A model generated the notes under the pieces. It saw only the letters and a program-made list of their open reading frames with translations. It had not been told where the DNA came from and did not search any database. Source: a virus (Duplodnaviria; Heunggongvirae; Uroviricota; Caudoviricetes). From it: 64,000 nucleotides of DNA. Made by a program: the position numbers and the translations under genes. Positions 9,512 to 29,896 of this stretch are shown in pieces. Within the stretch, counting starts at the first letter, position 1. The number at the start of each line of letters is the position of its first letter. The stretch lies in IMG/VR virus record IMGVR_UViG_3300029922_000040, one strand, 5' to 3'.

Positions 9512-9705
9512 GTGAGTTCACCAACGAGCGGCTACTCGACCTTGTGCGGTACATGCGTTTCCCCCTGTATGAAGCGGGGGTCATCACCGATGAAGAGTAT
9601 GCGGCATTAGTCGCCGACAGCGAAAGTAGGCAACGTGTGGCTCGAATCGAAGAGTGGGACACCTTAAGAAAAAGGCTGGAGGCACAGCATGAGAAACAAC
9701 ATTGA
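9508..9705 (+). CDS. hypothetical protein (65 aa)
   Basis: ORF overlapping neighbouring stop and start. Confidence 0.45.
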   Translation: MSEFTNERLLDLVRYMRFPLYEAGVITDEEYAALVADSESRQRVARIEEWDTLRKRLEAQHEKQH

Positions 9706-10534
9706 ACAGAAATGGCCTAACCACTTCATCGTTATGCGTCACGGGCAATCGAAGAGGAACGTTGACCGTGAGGTTGCAAAGGCTGCTGGCGGGTACGCCG
9801 ACTTCTCTTCAGGCATCCGTGACCAAGACACGCCCCTGACGCCGCTAGGCGAAATGCAAGCTCTCAGCGCGGGGGTGGAGTTACGCAAGAGATTCCCCTT
9901 GAGGACAAGCCAAGTCAAGCATGACTTTGGCTGCGAGTTGGATATGGGGGGGAGCTTTTGCTCCTGCGGCTTGTTGGAAGATGAAACACGTCTCGGCAAA
10001 CCGATTGACGTTCTCTACGTCTCCCCCTACCTGCGTACCCGCCAGACCGCAAATAAATTCATTGAGGGTCTTGGTTATACGCCGGAGCATGTCATTGTGG
10101 ATGAGCGTATCCGCGAGATTGAGTTCGGCTTGTTGGATGGTCTCGAACACGCCGGTATCAAGGCCAAGTACCCGGAGGAGATTGCCCGTAAGGCTAAGGA
10201 AGGTAAGTATTGGTACCGGGCACCGGGTGGCGAGTCTCGCCCTGACGTTAAACTTCGCATCCGCTCGTTTCTTGACACGGTCGTACGGGACTGCCGAGGC
10301 TTGAATGTCATGGTGATATGTCATAGCGTAGTCGTTCTCAGCTTCCGTGCAACGCTGGAGAAGTGGGGCGAAGACGATTACCTTCAAGTCGATAAAGAGA
10401 ACGACGTGAAGAACGCCAGCATCACGCACTATGCCTACGAGCATGTGGGAGCATACCCCAACGGGCTCCCTCACTCGAAGCTGGTGCTCAAAGAATACAA
10501 CTCAATCTTCTACGCGGAGTATGCAACTAAATAG
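9689..10534 (+). CDS. histidine phosphatase superfamily (phosphoglycerate-mutase-like) protein
   Basis: N-terminal RHG motif (IVMRHGQSKRNV) characteristic of the family. Confidence 0.65.
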   Translation: MRNNIEQKWPNHFIVMRHGQSKRNVDREVAKAAGGYADFSSGIRDQDTPLTPLGEMQALSAGVELRKRFPLRTSQVKHDFGCELDMGGSFCSCGLLEDETRLGKPIDVLYVSPYLRTRQTANKFIEGLGYTPEHVIVDERIREIEFGLLDGLEHAGIKAKYPEEIARKAKEGKYWYRAPGGESRPDVKLRIRSFLDTVVRDCRGLNVMVICHSVVVLSFRATLEKWGEDDYLQVDKENDVKNASITHYAYEHVGAYPNGLPHSKLVLKEYNSIFYAEYATK

Positions 10535-12406: not shown

Positions 12407-13192
12407 ATGTCTCATTTTGCTGTAACCGTAATCGGCGAAGAACCGGAAAAACAGCTTGCTCCCTACCATGAATTTGAATGTACCGGCGTTGACAACGAGT
12501 ATGTTCAAAGTATAGATGAGGAAGCACGTGAAACGTGGAAGAGGGATGACGATGACTCCAAGAAACCCTTTTTAGAATTCCTTCAAGATTACTTAAAGAG
12601 CGGTCGGATAGGGCTTCATGGAACCCCCGGACTTCAAAGGTTAGACCCCAACTATGAACGGCCAAAGATTACGACCTGTTTGCCGATGTAGTCAAAGATA
12701 CGCCTGAAGCGTAAGATTCAGCGATTCTTCGCAGGGGAGGGGGTGAAGCCATTGACAAACCAATTCAGCCAATCACGATACTCGAAGGTGGATGGTCCCA
12801 AAATGATCTTATACCTGCTATTAGGTACAAGGTTACTTGCCCCGACGGATGGTACGAGTCAGCAAAAGACAACCTCTGTCACCTCTCAGGAGCCGAGAAC
12901 GGCGTTGATTGACGGCGCTCCGTAGGCACCGTATCGGAGGCCGCAACCAGCACGGTGCGACATCACCTGCACCCGTTCGGAATACATTGAAAGGGCACGG
13001 CGGAAAGCAATTACTACCTTTGCACTGGTAAAAGATGGCAAGTGGTATCAGAGGGGACGTATGGGTTGGTTTGCTTGTGTTTCAGATGAAAAGGATGAAG
13101 CCGTATGGCACCGCGAGTTCTCAGACCTGTTCGATGGCCTCCCAGATAACACGCTCATTACCATCGTTGATTGCCACATCTAAAAAGAATTT
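12407..13192 (+). pseudogene. apparently disrupted gene: protein-like segments in frame 2 (12407-12691), frame 1 (12658-12714, then 12715-12912 after an in-frame TAA) and frame 2 (12926-13192)
   Basis: Adjacent protein-like translations: ..LQRLDPNYERPKITTCLPM*, then TAKDYDLFADVVKDTPEA*DSAILRRGGGEAIDKPIQPITILEGGWSQNDLIPAIRYKVTCPDGWYESAKDNLCHLSGAENGVD*, then APYRRPQ..KWYQRGRMGWFACVSDEKDEAVWHREFSDLFDGLPDNTLITIVDCHI*. No single intact frame exists. Confidence 0.35.
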
Positions 13193-13239
13193 GCAAAAAC
13201 CAACTAAGACCGTCTATACTTCCTCGCAGGGGGAAGGAC

Positions 13240-13497
13240 ATGCCTCGTAGCAACAAAGCATTTGGGTCATACCAAAGTGGCAGCGGGTGTTCTATCGAAC
13301 CAGCGATACCGGCTCGGTGGGATGTTTTCCTTAAGGAACTCAACGTAACAGAAATGGAAGCTCTGACAATACTCAGGAGCCGGTCGGAATTGACACCCCG
13401 TATCCGGTCATGGGTAATGACAAACCACAGGTCAGCCTTTGTTCCTGAAGATTTCCTCATGACCTTGGGCATTCAAATGGAACTGTACGAAAACTAA
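13240..13497 (+). CDS. hypothetical protein (MPRSNKAF...)
   Basis: ATG 13240 with a gggaagga SD, inside ORF 13171..13497. Confidence 0.45.
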   Translation: MPRSNKAFGSYQSGSGCSIEPAIPARWDVFLKELNVTEMEALTILRSRSELTPRIRSWVMTNHRSAFVPEDFLMTLGIQMELYEN

Positions 13498-13505
13498 CGA
13501 GTGAT

Positions 13506-13769
13506 GTGATGAGCGACCAACTTCTAACCCGAGACGAGTTCCGCGAGGGCGTATTCGCTAGAGACAGGCACACGTGTGTGAATTGTCGCAAGCCGGGAGT
13601 TGACGCTCATCACATCATGGAACGCAGACTGTTTCCTGATGGAGGGTATTACCTTTGGGAGCAGGAGAAGTACCCCATCACGGTAGACCCTCTCAATGGA
13701 GCCGGGTGCGATTACAACGCCATCATCCAAGCGGAGGAGTCCAAGCGGACGTGTGGGGATTCTAAATAA
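13506..13769 (+). CDS. truncated HNH-like protein, paralogous to the N-terminus of the 14599 gene
   Basis: LLTRDEFREGVFARDRHTCVNCRKPGVDAHHIMERRLFPDGGY against LLTRDEFRGLVLARDHNTCAHCGSSGVRLDVHHIMERRLFEDGGY. Confidence 0.55.
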   Translation: MMSDQLLTRDEFREGVFARDRHTCVNCRKPGVDAHHIMERRLFPDGGYYLWEQEKYPITVDPLNGAGCDYNAIIQAEESKRTCGDSK

Positions 13770-13803
13770 ATACTAGCCAAAAGTAGGGCACTCCGGGTAT
13801 ACT
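13760..13803 (+). promoter_or_regulatory. conserved phage promoter copy 4
   Basis: TAGCCA 13774-13779, 18 nt, TATACT 13798-13803. Confidence 0.5.
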
Positions 13804-13885
13804 AGGAGTATGTTGATTGTTTCCTTTGGGTGGGTAGTTTAACAATATACCCATCTCAAGAAAACAAACTACCAAACCCATCTAC

Positions 13886-14617
13886 ATGAAAACAAAATGT
13901 GGATGTGTGGATACAGGGCAGTTTTTGCAGCTTTTTAATTCAGGGGCTCTACTTAACGAGATTGGCACAGAGCTTAATGTGAGCCAACGAACCCTGAGTC
14001 GAATCGTAAAACAACTAGGTTTGAACGCGAAGACACGCCCCAAATTTAAGGTGGCGAAGCCGTCATTAACCCGACAGGTGGGCAAAAAATATGCTTACCT
14101 CACTGTTGTTGGAACGGAGTACAACAGCCGGTTACATCAATGGGTGCTGACCATAAAGTGCGACTGTGGTCGTATTTCTACGGAGACGGCACCCAAGCTA
14201 GTCAACGGCGACCGTAAATCTTGCGGAGTTATCGGATGCTCCTATCGTGGAGTCGTACGTCAAGAAAACGGGAAGAAAGCAGGGTGGACGGGATGCGGGG
14301 AGATTTACGGATGTAGGTGGGATCAGTGGCGAATAGGTGCAGAAAAGCGAGGATTGGCGTTCGACATCAGCATTGAATACGCTTGGGAGTTGTTTGAAAA
14401 ACAAGGTCGTAAATGCGCGTTGACGGGAGAGCCGATAAGTTTTGGAAATTCGTGGAACCGAAAATGCACAGCTTCACTTGACCGAATTGACTCCGCTAAA
14501 CCTTACATTGAGGGCAATGTTCAATGGGTGCAGACGCGGGTCAATTTGATGAAACGTAGTATGGATGAGGCGGAGTTCATAGAACTCTGTGGATTGATAT
14601 GGAAGAACCGCTCCTAA
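13886..14617 (+). CDS. HTH + Cys-ribbon + HNH-like homing-endonuclease-type protein
   Basis: HTH-like segment LNEIGTELNVSQRTLSRIV. Cys module KCDCGRISTETAPKLVNGDRKSCG. C-terminal ASLDRIDSAKPYIEGNVQWV...VNLMK, which is typical of HNH homing endonucleases. Confidence 0.55.
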   Translation: MKTKCGCVDTGQFLQLFNSGALLNEIGTELNVSQRTLSRIVKQLGLNAKTRPKFKVAKPSLTRQVGKKYAYLTVVGTEYNSRLHQWVLTIKCDCGRISTETAPKLVNGDRKSCGVIGCSYRGVVRQENGKKAGWTGCGEIYGCRWDQWRIGAEKRGLAFDISIEYAWELFEKQGRKCALTGEPISFGNSWNRKCTASLDRIDSAKPYIEGNVQWVQTRVNLMKRSMDEAEFIELCGLIWKNRS

Positions 14618-15639
14618 CTCGCGACGAATTCAGGGGACTGGTTCTTGCCAGAGACCACAATACTTGTGCCCATTGCGGCTCGTCTGGTGTTCGGCTCGAT
14701 GTTCACCACATTATGGAAAGACGCCTTTTTGAAGATGGAGGGTATAGAATTTCAAATGGAATCTCACTTTGTTCAGACTGCCACGAAGCGGCGGAAGCAA
14801 CCACTATTGATTGTGCAACGCTTCGTGAACGAGCAGGAATCGCAGTTCCTTGCCTCCCTCCACACTTTGAAGCAGATGGTGTGTACGATAAGTGGGGTAA
14901 CGGAATCTTGCCTAACGGTCAACGACTTCAGGGAGAATTGTTTCTGGAGCCCGGAGTGCAGAAGGCTCTGCGGAACAAACTCTACCTATTCACCGACAAG
15001 GTGAAGTACCCTAAAACTTTTCATTGGCCTTCGTCCCCCGGTCTACAAAATGACGACCGGATGCACACGACCACCGACCAATGGGACGGGTTGGAAGTCA
15101 TCGTTACCGAGAAGCTTGATGGAGAGAATACCACCATGGCACGGGATTATATGCACGCCCGGTCGTTGGAATTTAGCACTCATCCATCTCGCACTTTCAT
15201 AAAAGCAATCTGGTCTCGGGTTGCCCACGACATCCCTGAAAATTTCAGAGTCTGCGGCGAAAATGTCACAGCGGTTCATTCCATCGAGTACCATGACCTC
15301 GCCTCCTACTTCTATGTGTTCAACATCTGGCATGGGCAGAACTGCCTGTCATGGGATGACACCGAGACCTATGCCGGTCTACTGGACCTGCCCACCGTGC
15401 CGGTTCTATACCGGGGTGTGTGGGAGGAAGGGCTGATAGATAGCATCGCCAGCGGTCTTGTACCTGAGCGGCAAGAAGGACTAGTCTTCCGTCCCACACG
15501 AGGATTTACTCTGAGGGAGTTCCCCCGGCTTATGGCTAAGTGGGTGAGGAAGGGACATGTGCAAACCGATGAGCATTGGATGAGCCAGCCTGTAAGGTTC
15601 AACCACCGCCCACACAGAGGAGGAAGTAGATGGGGATGA
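14599..15639 (+). CDS. HNH nuclease domain fused to an Rnl2-like RNA ligase (nucleotidyltransferase)
   Basis: N-terminal HNH (CxxC..HH..N..CSDCH). Ligase motif I TEKLDGEN, motif IV EGLVFRP, motif V AKWVRKG. Confidence 0.6.
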   Translation: MEEPLLTRDEFRGLVLARDHNTCAHCGSSGVRLDVHHIMERRLFEDGGYRISNGISLCSDCHEAAEATTIDCATLRERAGIAVPCLPPHFEADGVYDKWGNGILPNGQRLQGELFLEPGVQKALRNKLYLFTDKVKYPKTFHWPSSPGLQNDDRMHTTTDQWDGLEVIVTEKLDGENTTMARDYMHARSLEFSTHPSRTFIKAIWSRVAHDIPENFRVCGENVTAVHSIEYHDLASYFYVFNIWHGQNCLSWDDTETYAGLLDLPTVPVLYRGVWEEGLIDSIASGLVPERQEGLVFRPTRGFTLREFPRLMAKWVRKGHVQTDEHWMSQPVRFNHRPHRGGSRWG

Positions 15640-15818
15640 TTAGGCGACTCGATGAGTGGTGGGCTATCTGCTACAAAGACGGAGCTATAGCGTGCGATGA
15701 CCGAGGACAAGGTCATTTCTATTTCAGCAGACGCGAGGCTCGTATGGCGATGCGCGGTGCCGTAGAGGAGCATGGGGCGGTTCTGCATATTAAAAAGGTG
15801 GCTGTGGAGTTCAGGTAA
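15630..15818 (+). CDS. small hypothetical protein (62 aa)
   Basis: ORF. Confidence 0.35.
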   Translation: MGMIRRLDEWWAICYKDGAIACDDRGQGHFYFSRREARMAMRGAVEEHGAVLHIKKVAVEFR

Positions 15819-15856
15819 TCCTGCGCCCTCACCCAACCGCAGGCAGCACGATCTTT

Positions 15857-16099
15857 ATGGAGCATGGTCCGACGAAGGAAGCCGTGTTCTCAGCCGCCGC
15901 AGAGCCCACACGCCAGCGCGAACGCGAGATTGCGGAACTGCGGGAAGAGATCAAAGCTCTTGGAATTGCTATTAAAGGCGAGAGAATGCGCGACTTTGAG
16001 GCTACGGCGACGGTCTTAGAACGCACCCTAGCCCGCCTGCAACGCGACCTCGCCGTGCTGCTCAAGGGCTGGCGCGAACAGGATGGAGGCACAAAATGA
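15857..16099 (+). CDS. small coiled-coil protein
   Basis: ORF in a GC-rich stretch. Confidence 0.4.
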   Translation: MEHGPTKEAVFSAAAEPTRQREREIAELREEIKALGIAIKGERMRDFEATATVLERTLARLQRDLAVLLKGWREQDGGTK

Positions 16100-16731
16100 C
16101 CGACACAGCAAAGGGCGCGGGCGAGATAGTGGAAGACCTGCTGGATCATCTGCATCAATGGGCGCTGAAACTAGGCAATGAGTCCGAGCTTGGGCCGTTG
16201 AATACGTTCAAGAGAATGACTGCTACGCTGATTGAGCGCGTCTCCAAGGCCGAGCAGGCACTCGCACAGGCGCAGGCGGAGAACCAGAGGCTTACGGACC
16301 TAGTTCGCTACAGCCGCCACTATCTGCACGAAGAGCAACTGATCGACGACAAGGAGTTTGCGGGCTTGGTTGCTGATTCAGAGAACAGTATGCGGGTCCA
16401 GCGGTTGGAAGGCTACGACCGCATTCAAGAGAAAATCGCTGCCCTGCAAGCCGAGCGCGACACCCTCAAGGCGGAGGTTCTAACCCTCAAGAGCGCCAAC
16501 GAGGACGCGAGGCTGAATTACCAGACGCTTGAAGAATACGACAGCGGATTAGCCGATATAGTCAGCAACGATGCACCCGGCGCAGCGATGGCCACTCTTG
16601 AGCAGAAGCTGGCGACGGCGGATGCGCTGCTGAAGAAGCATGTTGACGGAGCGTGTTGCTGTGTGTGTTGCTGTGATGATAACTCTCGCTGTGACCTGTG
16701 CAAAATCACTCTGGCGCACCTTAACCCGTAG
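16096..16731 (+). CDS. coiled-coil protein with a C-terminal Cys cluster (CCCVCCCDD..CDLC)
   Basis: ORF. Confidence 0.55.
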   Translation: MTDTAKGAGEIVEDLLDHLHQWALKLGNESELGPLNTFKRMTATLIERVSKAEQALAQAQAENQRLTDLVRYSRHYLHEEQLIDDKEFAGLVADSENSMRVQRLEGYDRIQEKIAALQAERDTLKAEVLTLKSANEDARLNYQTLEEYDSGLADIVSNDAPGAAMATLEQKLATADALLKKHVDGACCCVCCCDDNSRCDLCKITLAHLNP

Positions 16732-16757: not shown

Positions 16758-17063
16758 ATGGCAAACGAAGCGACTAAGCCGCAGGGAGCGGGGGATAAAT
16801 GCGAAGACTGCCACGGGACCGGCGAGGTAGATTTAATCGACGGTCATGAGCAGCCTTGCGCGGCCTGCATGAGTAGAGAATTTGCTGTCAAGTACGCCGC
16901 CCAGTCCGCCGATCTGGAGCAACTGCGGGCGCATTTGGTGTCCTGCATAGCATTTTCTGATTGCGAAGGAGATTGCACCGGGGAAGGAACTTGTGCTTTC
17001 AACATAGCTAAAAAGTATCTCGTATCCCGCGCAGCAACCAAGGGGGTGCAGAGTGCCGAGTGA
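16758..17063 (+). CDS. zinc-finger-like small protein (CEDCHGTG...CAAC)
   Basis: ORF. Confidence 0.5.
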   Translation: MANEATKPQGAGDKCEDCHGTGEVDLIDGHEQPCAACMSREFAVKYAAQSADLEQLRAHLVSCIAFSDCEGDCTGEGTCAFNIAKKYLVSRAATKGVQSAE

Positions 17064-17496
17064 ACTGAGGCCGTGCCCCCTATGCTTGGGGGAAGTGAAG
17101 TGGCACACATCCGAAGTTGCAGGCGAAGGCGGTAACGTGTATCACACGCATAATCTGCAATGCCCTGTGCGGGTTGAATCGCTCTTTCGGGACGATGACG
17201 AACGGATCATCGCCGCATGGAACACCCGCGCGTCGGACTGGCAGGAAATAACGCCGGAGAATCTGCCGAAGTGGGATGCAGAGGATGAGATATACGGGGT
17301 ATCGACCTATGAGGGCAATTCATGGAAGGTGGTAGCAACTGTGTCGAAGACTCACGAACGGTGGGATTACAAAGACTACTTGAATGCAGGCTGGACCCAC
17401 TTCCGCCCGATCAACGCACCCGAGCCCAGCGGCCACCGCATGAGGACCGGCCTGCCGTGCATAATCGGGAGCGGGTTGCCCGTGGTTAAACTATAA
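17053..17496 (+). CDS. hypothetical protein with CPLC..H..C motif
   Basis: ORF. Confidence 0.55.
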   Translation: MPSELRPCPLCLGEVKWHTSEVAGEGGNVYHTHNLQCPVRVESLFRDDDERIIAAWNTRASDWQEITPENLPKWDAEDEIYGVSTYEGNSWKVVATVSKTHERWDYKDYLNAGWTHFRPINAPEPSGHRMRTGLPCIIGSGLPVVKL

Positions 17497-28621: not shown

Positions 28622-29896
28622 ATGGACATGAGAGAAGCCGCTGAATTCGTGTTGAACACCCTCCGCAAGGCAGGATTTGAAGCCTACTTTGCTGGTGGTT
28701 GTGTTCGTGACTTTGTGATGGGACGGACTCCTAAGGATTTTGATATCACAACCAATGCCCGTCCAGAGCAGGTCACTCCCCTGTTTGATAAGACCATACC
28801 AGTCGGTGCTGCATTCGGCGTCGTGGTGGTGATGGTGGGAGGGTTTCAGTTTGAGGTCGCCACCTATCGTGCTGACGGTGCCTACAGCGATGGCCGTCGC
28901 CCCGATGAGGTTACCTACAGCAATTCCGCCGAGGAAGATGTAAAGCGGCGGGACTTCACCATGAACGGGCTCCTGATAGCCAATCCGTTTGATGCCCTCA
29001 TGACCGATTACAGTCTCGGCGTCCTCGACTACGTGGGCGGCAGGGATGACATCGAAAACCGGGTCATCCGGTGTATCGGCAATGCCGACACGCGCTTCAA
29101 AGAAGATGCATTGCGGATGTTGCGTGCGGTTCGCTTCGTTGGTCAGTTAGGCTTCGAGATAGAGGCGGAAACCTTCAAGGCCCTACAGGCGAACGTGGAC
29201 AGCATAGTCAACGTCTCCCGCGAACGTGTTGCGGAGGAGTTGAAGAAGCTGACCACATCCAAGTTCGCTGCCAGAGGGTTGGCGGCGTTGGCGTCTACTG
29301 GTTTGCTGCGTCGTCTGCTGCCTGACGGTGTTTCCGATACGCGCTTCGCCTTTACACTGGAGCGGTTCGCTATGTTCCAAACAACCGACCCCGTGATGGG
29401 TCTGGCGATGTTGCTGGCTGATACTCAGACCAACGAGATGGCAGCGTTGACCTGCGACAGCTTCAAGCTGTCTACGGATGAACGTGACGCCATCTTGGGT
29501 GCGGTTAGAAATCAGGAAGCCATAGGTTCAATTGGCTCTCCGGCTGGTACCAAGCTGTTGGCTCGTGAGAAGGGTGTACTGCCGTATGCAGTAGACCTGT
29601 TCGAGCAGAACATAGGTTTGGGCTTTGCAAACGGTGTAGAGGCAGGGATGGATGCAGTACTGCGGTACAGGGCATTAACGCCGGAAGACATACGCCCATC
29701 ACCGTTTGTCTCTGGCCGGGATTTGATAGAGATGGGATTCACGCCGGGGCCGATGTTCACCACGGTTTTAAGGGCGGTGGAGTTCGGTCAATTAAACGGC
29801 ACATTGACCACCCGCGAACAGGCACTCGGCTTCGCTAAGTTCGAATCCGGGGTGCAGGAAACAGCAGCCTTCGTCAAGAGCGAAGCGGAAAGGTAA
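28622..29896 (+). CDS. cca: tRNA nucleotidyltransferase (CCA-adding enzyme) / poly(A) polymerase family
   Basis: The head-domain signature GGCVRDFVMGRTPKDFDITTNARPEQV and RRDFTMNG are present. Confidence 0.8.
   Translation: MDMREAAEFVLNTLRKAGFEAYFAGGCVRDFVMGRTPKDFDITTNARPEQVTPLFDKTIPVGAAFGVVVVMVGGFQFEVATYRADGAYSDGRRPDEVTYSNSAEEDVKRRDFTMNGLLIANPFDALMTDYSLGVLDYVGGRDDIENRVIRCIGNADTRFKEDALRMLRAVRFVGQLGFEIEAETFKALQANVDSIVNVSRERVAEELKKLTTSKFAARGLAALASTGLLRRLLPDGVSDTRFAFTLERFAMFQTTDPVMGLAMLLADTQTNEMAALTCDSFKLSTDERDAILGAVRNQEAIGSIGSPAGTKLLAREKGVLPYAVDLFEQNIGLGFANGVEAGMDAVLRYRALTPEDIRPSPFVSGRDLIEMGFTPGPMFTTVLRAVEFGQLNGTLTTREQALGFAKFESGVQETAAFVKSEAER

Follow-up and report, generated by a model that had tools for sequence, protein, structure and literature searches.

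In a 64,000-nucleotide stretch of tailed-phage DNA (Caudoviricetes; IMG/VR record IMGVR_UViG_3300029922_000040), the whole of which is referred to here as the window, positions 13506-15639 hold three open reading frames (ORFs) on the same strand, encoding proteins of 87, 243 and 346 amino acids. The third ORF, at 14599, encodes an HNH nuclease domain fused to an RNA ligase domain, the second is a predicted free-standing homing endonuclease gene (HEG), and the first, at 13506, begins with a diverged copy of the 5' end of the ligase gene. The interpretation favoured in the present work, with a probability of roughly 0.7, is that the first ORF is a left-over 5' end of the ligase gene, a stub which was stranded when gene conversion driven by the HEG replaced the 5' end of that gene.

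An earlier reading of the locus, made from the sequence alone and referred to here as the original prediction, had described the first ORF as a truncated paralogue of the HNH part of the fusion and had regarded the fusion itself as an unusual break-and-seal arrangement. The ORF does exist, it ends 830 bp before the ligase gene as described, and its similarity to that gene is beyond chance (BLASTP, E=3e-18). What was overlooked is the 243-amino acid HEG at 13886-14617, which lies in the 830-bp gap and is the key to the arrangement; the ORF is best understood not as a paralogous gene but as a 5' stub tied to this free-standing HEG. The possibility that an assembly frameshift had joined two genes is not borne out, because the locus is base-for-base identical across 22 independent contigs from several metagenomes. 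The phage is uncultured, and a megablast search with positions 13000-16500 against 50,697 phage records gave no match.

A predicted homing endonuclease gene at the ligase junction

The 243-amino acid protein has no significant match in Pfam, the HNH models included, and it matches the PHROG families “endonuclease”, “HNH endonuclease” and “endonuclease VII” at 1e-21 to 1e-15. The conserved parts of its family are an N-terminal helix-turn-helix, a zinc cluster of the form CxC...C...C and a C-terminal motif ASLDRID...Y...N..W....N..K. A nuclease domain, recognized by family and fold, and a separate DNA-binding module are both present in the window copy, in which the invariant residues of the family are all intact, and on the strength of these features the gene is assigned as a free-standing HNH-type (PacI-like) HEG. 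The protein differs from PacI-like and HNH (beta-beta-alpha-metal) nucleases in that they have a histidine where it has Asp-Arg, in a phage-type ASLDRID...N...N..K variant of the motif, and in that it carries the helix-turn-helix and the zinc cluster as extra modules. At position 216 the window copy has a glutamine, whereas 84% of the family have a histidine; the idea that this substitution has killed the enzyme was considered and rejected, because the position is only 84% histidine, the invariant residues are intact and nothing points to inactivation. Relatives of the HEG type, annotated “HNH endonuclease” or “endonuclease”, are scattered across many phages; a scan of viral contigs in which the HEG protein alone served as query detected none.

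The HEG appears to have its own promoter. Eighty nucleotides 5' of it, at approximately 13771-13805, lies the motif ACTAGCCAAAA-N14-GGGTATACTA (consensus scan match 13774-13803), whose general form, AAAAACTAGCCAAAA-N13/14-CGGTATACTA, is found at at least 13 sites in the window, all on the plus strand and several of them directly 5' of ORF starts. This bipartite motif is probably a promoter class specific to the phage. Apart from the motif, the spacer between the stub and the HEG has no homologue in the other HEG loci. Similar matches to the motif also occur in intergenic DNA of one of those loci, L014.

The occupancy of the junction between HEG and ligase gene by members of the HEG family is patchy. 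The start codon of the ligase gene lies 19 nt inside the 3' end of the HEG ORF, and in L014 this overlapping junction is conserved closely enough for its DNA to be aligned with that of the window. The closest relatives of the HEG for which DNA is available, those of L014 (61% identical to the window copy, and N-terminally truncated), L015 (48%), L016 (42%) and L097, all lie directly 5' of an HNH-RNA ligase gene, and the phage loci other than the window in which a relative occupies this junction number seven altogether (L014, L015, L016, L097, L128, L152 and L165). The gene is intact in the window and in L015, L016, L152 and L165; in L097 it is reduced to the C-terminal 110 amino acids, with a junction that overlaps the ligase start as in the window, and in L128 to approximately 76 amino acids. 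Of 80 ligase loci sampled from IMG/VR, three have a member of the family directly before the ligase gene (L152, L165 and, as a remnant, L128); a further 76 more distant endonuclease homologues sit in other contexts. The HEG is absent from L096, and the nearest relatives of the ligase with known context, P0002 (84% identical) and P0004 on L001 (79%), have neither HEG nor stub. Patchy occupancy of a single site by intact, truncated and vestigial copies is the pattern that the life cycle of a HEG is expected to produce.

The upstream ORF

The 13506 ORF resembles the start of the ligase gene over a sharply delimited stretch. In the BLASTP alignment with the fusion protein, 32 of 49 amino acids are identical (65%) over residues 1-49, DNA identity to the functional 5' end is approximately 64-70%, and positions 2-48 of the profile phrog_24030 match stub residues 5-50 with E=4.7e-15. 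The homology ends abruptly at nucleotide 13655, after ...FPDGGYYL, and the remaining 37 codons match nothing. The original prediction was therefore right that the ORF is homologous to the start of the HNH part and is without its second zinc knuckle (C58xxC61H62), along with which N53 is also missing, but at 65% identity the ORF does not repeat that start almost exactly.

The stub is closer to the rest of the ligase family than to the gene beside it. It is 84-89% identical to P0002, P0004, P0006, P0008 and P0010, and it thus has the appearance of a typical N-terminus of the family. Synonymous changes account for most of its divergence from L001 (pN=0.11, pS=0.71), an indication that it belonged to a functioning gene until not long ago, and its sequence is identical on at least 15 contigs. 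A comparable remnant is present in L014, where eight codons of a ligase gene (MSNQLLTR) occupy the place of the window stub. The idea that the stub represents an independent family of small proteins was rejected, since a search with its 86 amino acids gave mostly full genes truncated at contig ends.

Orphan N-terminal stubs of HNH-ligase genes, 55-57 amino acids long, also occur on other jumbo-phage contigs (L178 3501-3674 and L179 1675-1842; also L180 and L181), and neither a ligase domain nor a HEG was found near those of L178 and L179. The L178 stub ends after ...FPDGG and the L179 stub after ...DGGYYMENGA, that is, five codons before and four codons after the breakpoint in the window. These two stubs support the existence of a break-prone site.

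Mosaic structure of the ligase gene

The ligase gene itself is not of uniform ancestry. In a comparison at the protein level with P0002, which has no HEG, the identity of 30-residue segments is 57-69% for segments starting at residues 1-76 and 90-100% from residue 91 on; over the whole of each part, it is 62% for residues 1-94 and 94% for residues 95-335 (Fisher p=7e-12). Residues 95-335 belong with the P0002-P0006 clade (80-94% identity, compared to 57-60% to others). Residues 52-94, by contrast, are closest to the clade of P0008, P0010, P0011 and P0015 (70-74%), and are only 56-62% identical to the clade of the gene's own 3' part; P0015 is the ligase gene of L014, which bears a HEG. Residues 5-51 are an outlier, in that the stub is the nearer of the two N-termini for 114 of 115 homologues (mean identities 74.6% to the stub and 60.0% to the functional N-terminus). 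The ligase gene is a mosaic of three pieces with a breakpoint at approximately residue 94, a pattern that fits sequence exchange (co-conversion) beside the HEG, although the region is variable across the clade.

The DNA comparisons with L001, which is without a HEG, give the same picture. The first 130 nt of its ligase gene match the stub (window 13525-13654) at 78.5% and the last 750 nt match window 14854-15603 at 75.7% (blastn), while the functional 5' end of the window gene has no blastn match to L001 at all, the match resuming only at 14854. Nucleotide identity is 76% between the stub and L001, 74% between the functional 5' end and L096, and 64%, with saturated synonymous sites, between the stub and the functional end. 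The two copies are not sisters of one another, which speaks against a simple local duplication.

Proposed history and evidence against it

If the favoured interpretation is correct, the ancestral order would have been an 85-amino acid gene followed directly by the ligase gene. The 85-amino acid gene that now adjoins the stub would be a marker of this order; its homologue in L014 (36% amino acid identity) has the same position, directly before the eight-codon ligase remnant. The HEG would have come in through the repair of a double-strand break near codon 50 of the resident ligase gene, within its conserved HNH-coding part, with a donor that carried a HEG upstream of its own ligase gene as the repair template. 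At the right-hand end, the promoter, the HEG and the 5' end of the donor ligase gene would have been copied, with a crossover into the resident gene near codon 94 (approximately nucleotide 14880). The left-hand end would have been joined without homology, so that codons 1-50 of the resident gene were left as a dead stub with read-through to the stop at 13769.

The cut site of the endonuclease may tentatively be placed near codons 45-55, a position suggested by the breakpoints of the stubs in the window, L178 and L179 and by allele differences at codons 49-51. These codons read YYL in 87 of approximately 120 family members compared, and three alleles linked to a HEG deviate from this: YRI in the window, YIV in L014 and YRV in L097. 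As a predictor of linkage to a HEG, deviation from YYL was not retained beyond a weak suggestion.

Several observations weigh against the proposed history. The predicted association between deviation from YYL and the HEG held for three of the four deviant alleles, the fourth being that of L096 (YRI), which has no HEG, and the HEG-linked loci L016, L128 and L152 keep YYL or YFL. The stub is found at only two of the eight HEG-occupied loci, with 50 codons in the window and eight in L014; it was not detected in L016, L097, L128, L152 or L165, and the upstream sequence of L015 is too short to tell. No true empty-site allele of the same phage was found, and the comparators without a HEG are just 79-84% identical. 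The first 94 residues are less conserved generally within the P0002-P0006 clade (P0003 and P0004, for example, are 65% identical there, compared to 85%), and part of the drop in identity is consequently a property of the region, or a product of repeated exchange in it; the drop in the window gene is the most extreme. No donor closely matching residues 1-51 was found in the database, and the divergence of that segment may reflect either accelerated evolution or import. The substitution of His216 may mean that the window HEG is weakened. The insertion cannot be dated, because synonymous divergence (dS) is saturated in all comparisons of the 5' end.

The locus resembles those of other free-standing phage HEGs in having an endonuclease ORF equipped with a promoter and placed between genes, patchy presence, decayed copies and a divergent tract in an adjacent conserved gene. 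In the “intronless homing” of T4 SegF, SegG and MobE, a free-standing HEG cuts a neighbouring conserved gene and drives localized conversion. Classical intronless homing replaces sequence and leaves no stub, however, whereas the invasion proposed for the window would have left a duplicated, stranded 5' gene end. The endonuclease also fits a published observation, that nuclease genes, HEGs among them, lie at the boundaries of recombination in phage genomes (Barth et al. 2023, PMC10448857).

The fusion protein and its family

The domain composition given in the original prediction for the 14599 protein is present. Pfam HNH (PF01844) matches residues 23-65 with 33.0 bits (cut-off 21.4) and RNA_ligase (PF09414) residues 166-316 with 109.8 bits (cut-off 27); the translation contains the HNH residues C23xxC26, H36H37, N53 and C58xxC61H62 and the ligase motifs I (K172LDGEN), IV (E293GLVFRP) and V (K314WVRKG). 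The profile of PHROG 24030 (“RNA ligase”) aligns with residues 5-335 over positions 3-338 of its 342 (E=5.3e-105). In a 63-sequence alignment of the family, on which the conservation of catalytic residues was scored, the zinc ligands, H37, N53, K172, D174, G175, E176, E221, N222, E293, G294, K314 and R317 are invariant, and the conservation of H36, C61 and H62 is 90% or more; the nucleotidyltransferase motifs I (KxDG), III, IV and V are all present. The AlphaFold2 model derived from the family alignment is confident and has two domains (pLDDT 91, pTM 0.83). The HNH of IscB in the Protein Data Bank (PDB) matches the HNH part with E=7.5e-4, the rest of the PDB sequence search being noise, and the HNH part conforms to the beta-beta-alpha-metal fold.

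On the basis of these sequence features, the N-terminal domain is assigned as an HNH nuclease domain of the Cas9/McrA/IscB type. The alternative that it is a non-catalytic zinc ribbon is not borne out, as the conservation of the HNH residues across the family gives it the look of a catalytic domain, and it is probably an active metal-dependent nuclease. For the ligase domain we infer adenylylation at K172 and then the sealing of RNA breaks that have 3'-OH and 5'-phosphate ends, a role within a phage RNA-repair kit. The products of HNH cleavage have the 3'-OH and 5'-phosphate ends that this class of ligase needs, and are direct substrates for it.

The protein is “Rnl2-like” in its catalytic domain only. 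The adenylyltransferase domain is closest to Rnl2, but the protein ends approximately 25 residues past motif V (28 after K318; homologues end at about residue 335), and it therefore does not have the C-terminal helical domain of T4 Rnl2, the signature of Rnl2 in the strict sense; full-length T4 Rnl2 (2hvq) aligns over 179 residues only. The protein is not a member of Rnl5 (DraRnl/NgrRnl) either, which like Rnl3 is a related nick-sealing ligase and with which the lack of the C-terminal domain is the sole shared trait: it has neither the OB-like N-domain of Rnl5 nor the dimerization domains of Rnl3, and its N-terminal part, unlike that of T4 Rnl2, Rnl3 and Rnl5, consists of an HNH nuclease and a linker of approximately 60 residues.

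The survey of related phages proposed in the original prediction finds the fusion conserved, and its description as unusual does not stand. Full-length homologues with 41-51% identity (tblastn) occur in Salicola phage SCTP-2, Ralstonia phage RsoM2USA, the Caulobacter CcrSC/CcrBL9/RB23 group and Acinetobacter phage ME3, and the archaeal virus HGTV-1 has a homologue at 29% identity; XacN1, Atu_ph07 and Phosso have versions with the ligase only. In a large protein database 5983 metagenomic proteins match the fusion at E<=1e-5, and the full-length matches among the 120 listed all cover 94-100% of the query. The protein is an ordinary member of an already catalogued jumbo-phage family of HNH + Rnl2-type RNA ligases, and its domain order and length are the same as in the rest of PHROG 24030 with no architectural difference; within that family, its first 51 residues are unusually diverged and include a two-residue insertion (R32 L33). 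The architecture was noted by Iyer, Anantharaman, Krishnan, Burroughs and Aravind (2021, Viruses 13:63; PMC7824862), who cite Burroughs and Aravind (2016, NAR) for it and suggest that the HNH hits competitor or host DNA while the ligase mends RNA. A literature search found no biochemical study of an HNH-RNA ligase fusion.

Alternative explanations

The explanation offered in the original prediction was that a mobile HNH was recently captured by the ligase gene, or that the fusion is a dedicated break-and-seal enzyme for RNA editing, with the 13506 ORF as a truncated paralogous gene. The fit between HNH products and ligase substrates is in its favour, as is the fact that both domains keep their catalytic residues within a compact model. 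A fusion which is old, widespread and covered over its full length by a single PHROG is not a recent capture, however; the actual mobile endonuclease is a separate gene; the 13506 ORF comprises only the first 50 codons of the ligase gene, with half of the HNH motif gone and no family of its own; and for coupled cutting and resealing there is no evidence. Taken as a whole, this explanation is improbable. A local tandem duplication of the ligase 5' end followed by divergence, with the HEG between the copies by coincidence, would account for two same-strand copies approximately 1.1 kb apart, but it is more improbable still: each copy has a closer relative elsewhere, the stub in L001 and the functional end in L096; the homologues, all but one of the 115, side with the stub; the functional gene switches clade at approximately residue 94; and other phages share the HEG-ligase junction.

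It is also conceivable, though unlikely, that the 13506 ORF has been retained because it is useful, either as a left homology arm for the homing of a cassette into naive genomes, in the manner of the yeast WHO elements discussed below, or as a small zinc-knuckle protein. Its 50 codons contain no stop or frameshift, its divergence is mostly synonymous, it is identical on at least 15 contigs, L014 has a remnant at the same place, and the WHO elements provide a precedent in which a gene fragment, a HEG and a chimeric resistant gene occur together (PMC7282806). Against this, the stub is absent from six of the eight HEG-occupied loci, the L014 remnant has just eight codons and so is not maintained there, the tail beyond the homology is conserved nowhere, and half an HNH motif is unlikely to fold. 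A split gene, with the 13506 ORF as exon 1 or N-extein and the endonuclease carried by a group I intron or an intein, deserves mention because phage HNH endonuclease ORFs are often borne by introns. The intron reading was dropped when a scan of 12500-16500 found no Rfam family, group I and II introns included, at E<=1; moreover, the downstream ligase gene has a complete conserved N-terminus and a start codon of its own, and the HEG is read in another frame from a start of its own, behind its own promoter motif, and contains no intein blocks. The split gene can be given almost no weight.

Locus layout and neighbouring genes

Table 1. Features of the locus at 13240-15639 and positions of the promoter-motif cores in the window
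Feature	Position	Strand	Basis or remark
85-amino acid gene	13240-13497	+	adjoins the stub on its upstream side; ORF list
87-amino acid ORF, probable stranded 5' stub of HNH-RNA ligase gene	13506-13769	+	BLASTP, phrog_24030
Stub, homologous part (codons 1-50)	13509-13655	+	
Stub tail, unrelated read-through	13656-13769	+	matches nothing
Spacer, stub to HEG	13656-13885	+	contains copy of phage promoter motif (~13771-13805)
Predicted HEG, 243 amino acids: N-terminal helix-turn-helix, CxC...C...C zinc cluster, C-terminal HNH/beta-beta-alpha-metal nuclease	13886-14617	+	
HNH-RNA ligase fusion gene, 346 amino acids	14599-15639	+	Pfam, phrog_24030, AlphaFold2
HEG-proximal foreign-type 5' segment of ligase gene (residues 1-94)	14599-14880	+	mosaic comparison
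HNH domain of ligase gene (residues 8-70)	14620-14808	+	
Nucleotidyltransferase (ligase) domain (residues 133-335)	14995-15603	+	
Motif I lysine K172	15112-15114	+	
Motif IV	15475-15495	+	
Motif V	15538-15555	+	
GGTATACTA-type core sites	3858, 5265, 6330, 13796, 22344, 22703, 23078, 23458, 27378, 28608, 39576, 40741, 42154	+	

A promoter-like site also lies at 13191-13220, 5' of the 85-amino acid gene. The public JGI gene call (P0001, 308 amino acids; L002 574-1500, equivalent to window 14713-15639) begins the ligase at Met39, a start which would remove half of the HNH domain and which was presumably chosen to avoid the overlap with the endonuclease ORF; other gene callers give 346 amino acids. 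The strain variants L005, L006 and L008 are base-identical to the window through 15833 and unrelated to it from 15834 onward, a sharp recombination boundary just past a 62-amino acid gene 3' of the ligase gene.

A second stranded 5' gene stub is present in the same region, at 8475-8696 (+), where the first approximately 50 residues of a 73-amino acid ORF match the N-terminus of a 610-amino acid NAD synthase (CN_hydrolase + NAD_synthase); in the relative L001, the NAD synthase gene lies directly 5' of the HNH-ligase gene. The window also contains a set of genes of the RNA-repair or conflict type, all on the plus strand (23472-24977, 28622-29896, 6652-7545, 9689-10534, 17053-17496 and 19269-20516). 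Their products are a PARP-domain protein, a nucleotidyltransferase of the CCA-adding/poly(A)-polymerase type, a second small ATP-dependent ligase, a histidine phosphatase, a Lar-like restriction-alleviation protein and a ClpB-like AAA+ ATPase, among which the CCA-adding-type nucleotidyltransferase, the histidine phosphatase, the small ligase and the PARP-domain protein fit an RNA-repair or conflict toolkit. There are no tRNA genes in the window. A large ORF cut by the start of the window (2-2557, +) matches the shoulder domain of the major vault protein (PF11978, 4e-23) and the vault repeat (PF17795, 4e-10), an unexpected gene for a phage-like contig, and 20973-22181 (+) encodes a TnpB/Cas12f-like protein (Cas12f1-like TNB domain, 4e-9; OrfB_IS605, 8e-7).

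Implications

The locus offers a view of a free-standing HEG that probably remodelled a phage gene, with a stub which marks the probable cut site, and in several unrelated uncultured jumbo phages this junction is occupied by members of the same endonuclease clade that have decayed to different degrees. What is added to the existing description of the fusion family is an explanation, through the HEG, for both the supposed paralogue and the mosaic gene; as such, the locus is a tidy and unsurprising case of HEG-driven phage mosaicism.

A further step may be considered, although it must be regarded as doubtful. The promoter, the HEG and a cleavage-resistant replacement 5' end might together constitute a self-propagating “gene-end replacement” cassette, by analogy a phage counterpart of the WHO elements. 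Those elements were reportedly described by Coughlan et al. in eLife in 2020. In yeast, the 3' end of FBA1 is replaced by these elements and fragments of the gene persist; the copy that functions is chimeric, with a HEG-proximal end that has been proposed to be resistant to cleavage (PMC7282806). The window shares with them the combination of a target gene, an endonuclease gene and a fragment of the target gene, as well as the chimeric functional copy; it differs in that the 5' rather than the 3' end is affected, in an HNH-type rather than an intein-derived LAGLIDADG nuclease, in its phage setting as opposed to yeast, and in that WHO elements form arrays. The fragment is seen at only two of the eight HEG-occupied loci, and the stub may accordingly be an integral component of such a cassette or an isolated accident of repair.

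A cassette of this kind would cut naive ligase genes at codons of approximately 45-55, supply a new start and N-terminal region, and leave the old one stranded. If such a cassette exists, it would also explain the orphan 5' stubs of L014, L178 and L179; and if it carries its own replacement gene end, the homing strategy of the yeast WHO elements would be extended to phages, and a new clade of HNH-type endonucleases would have a testable target site.

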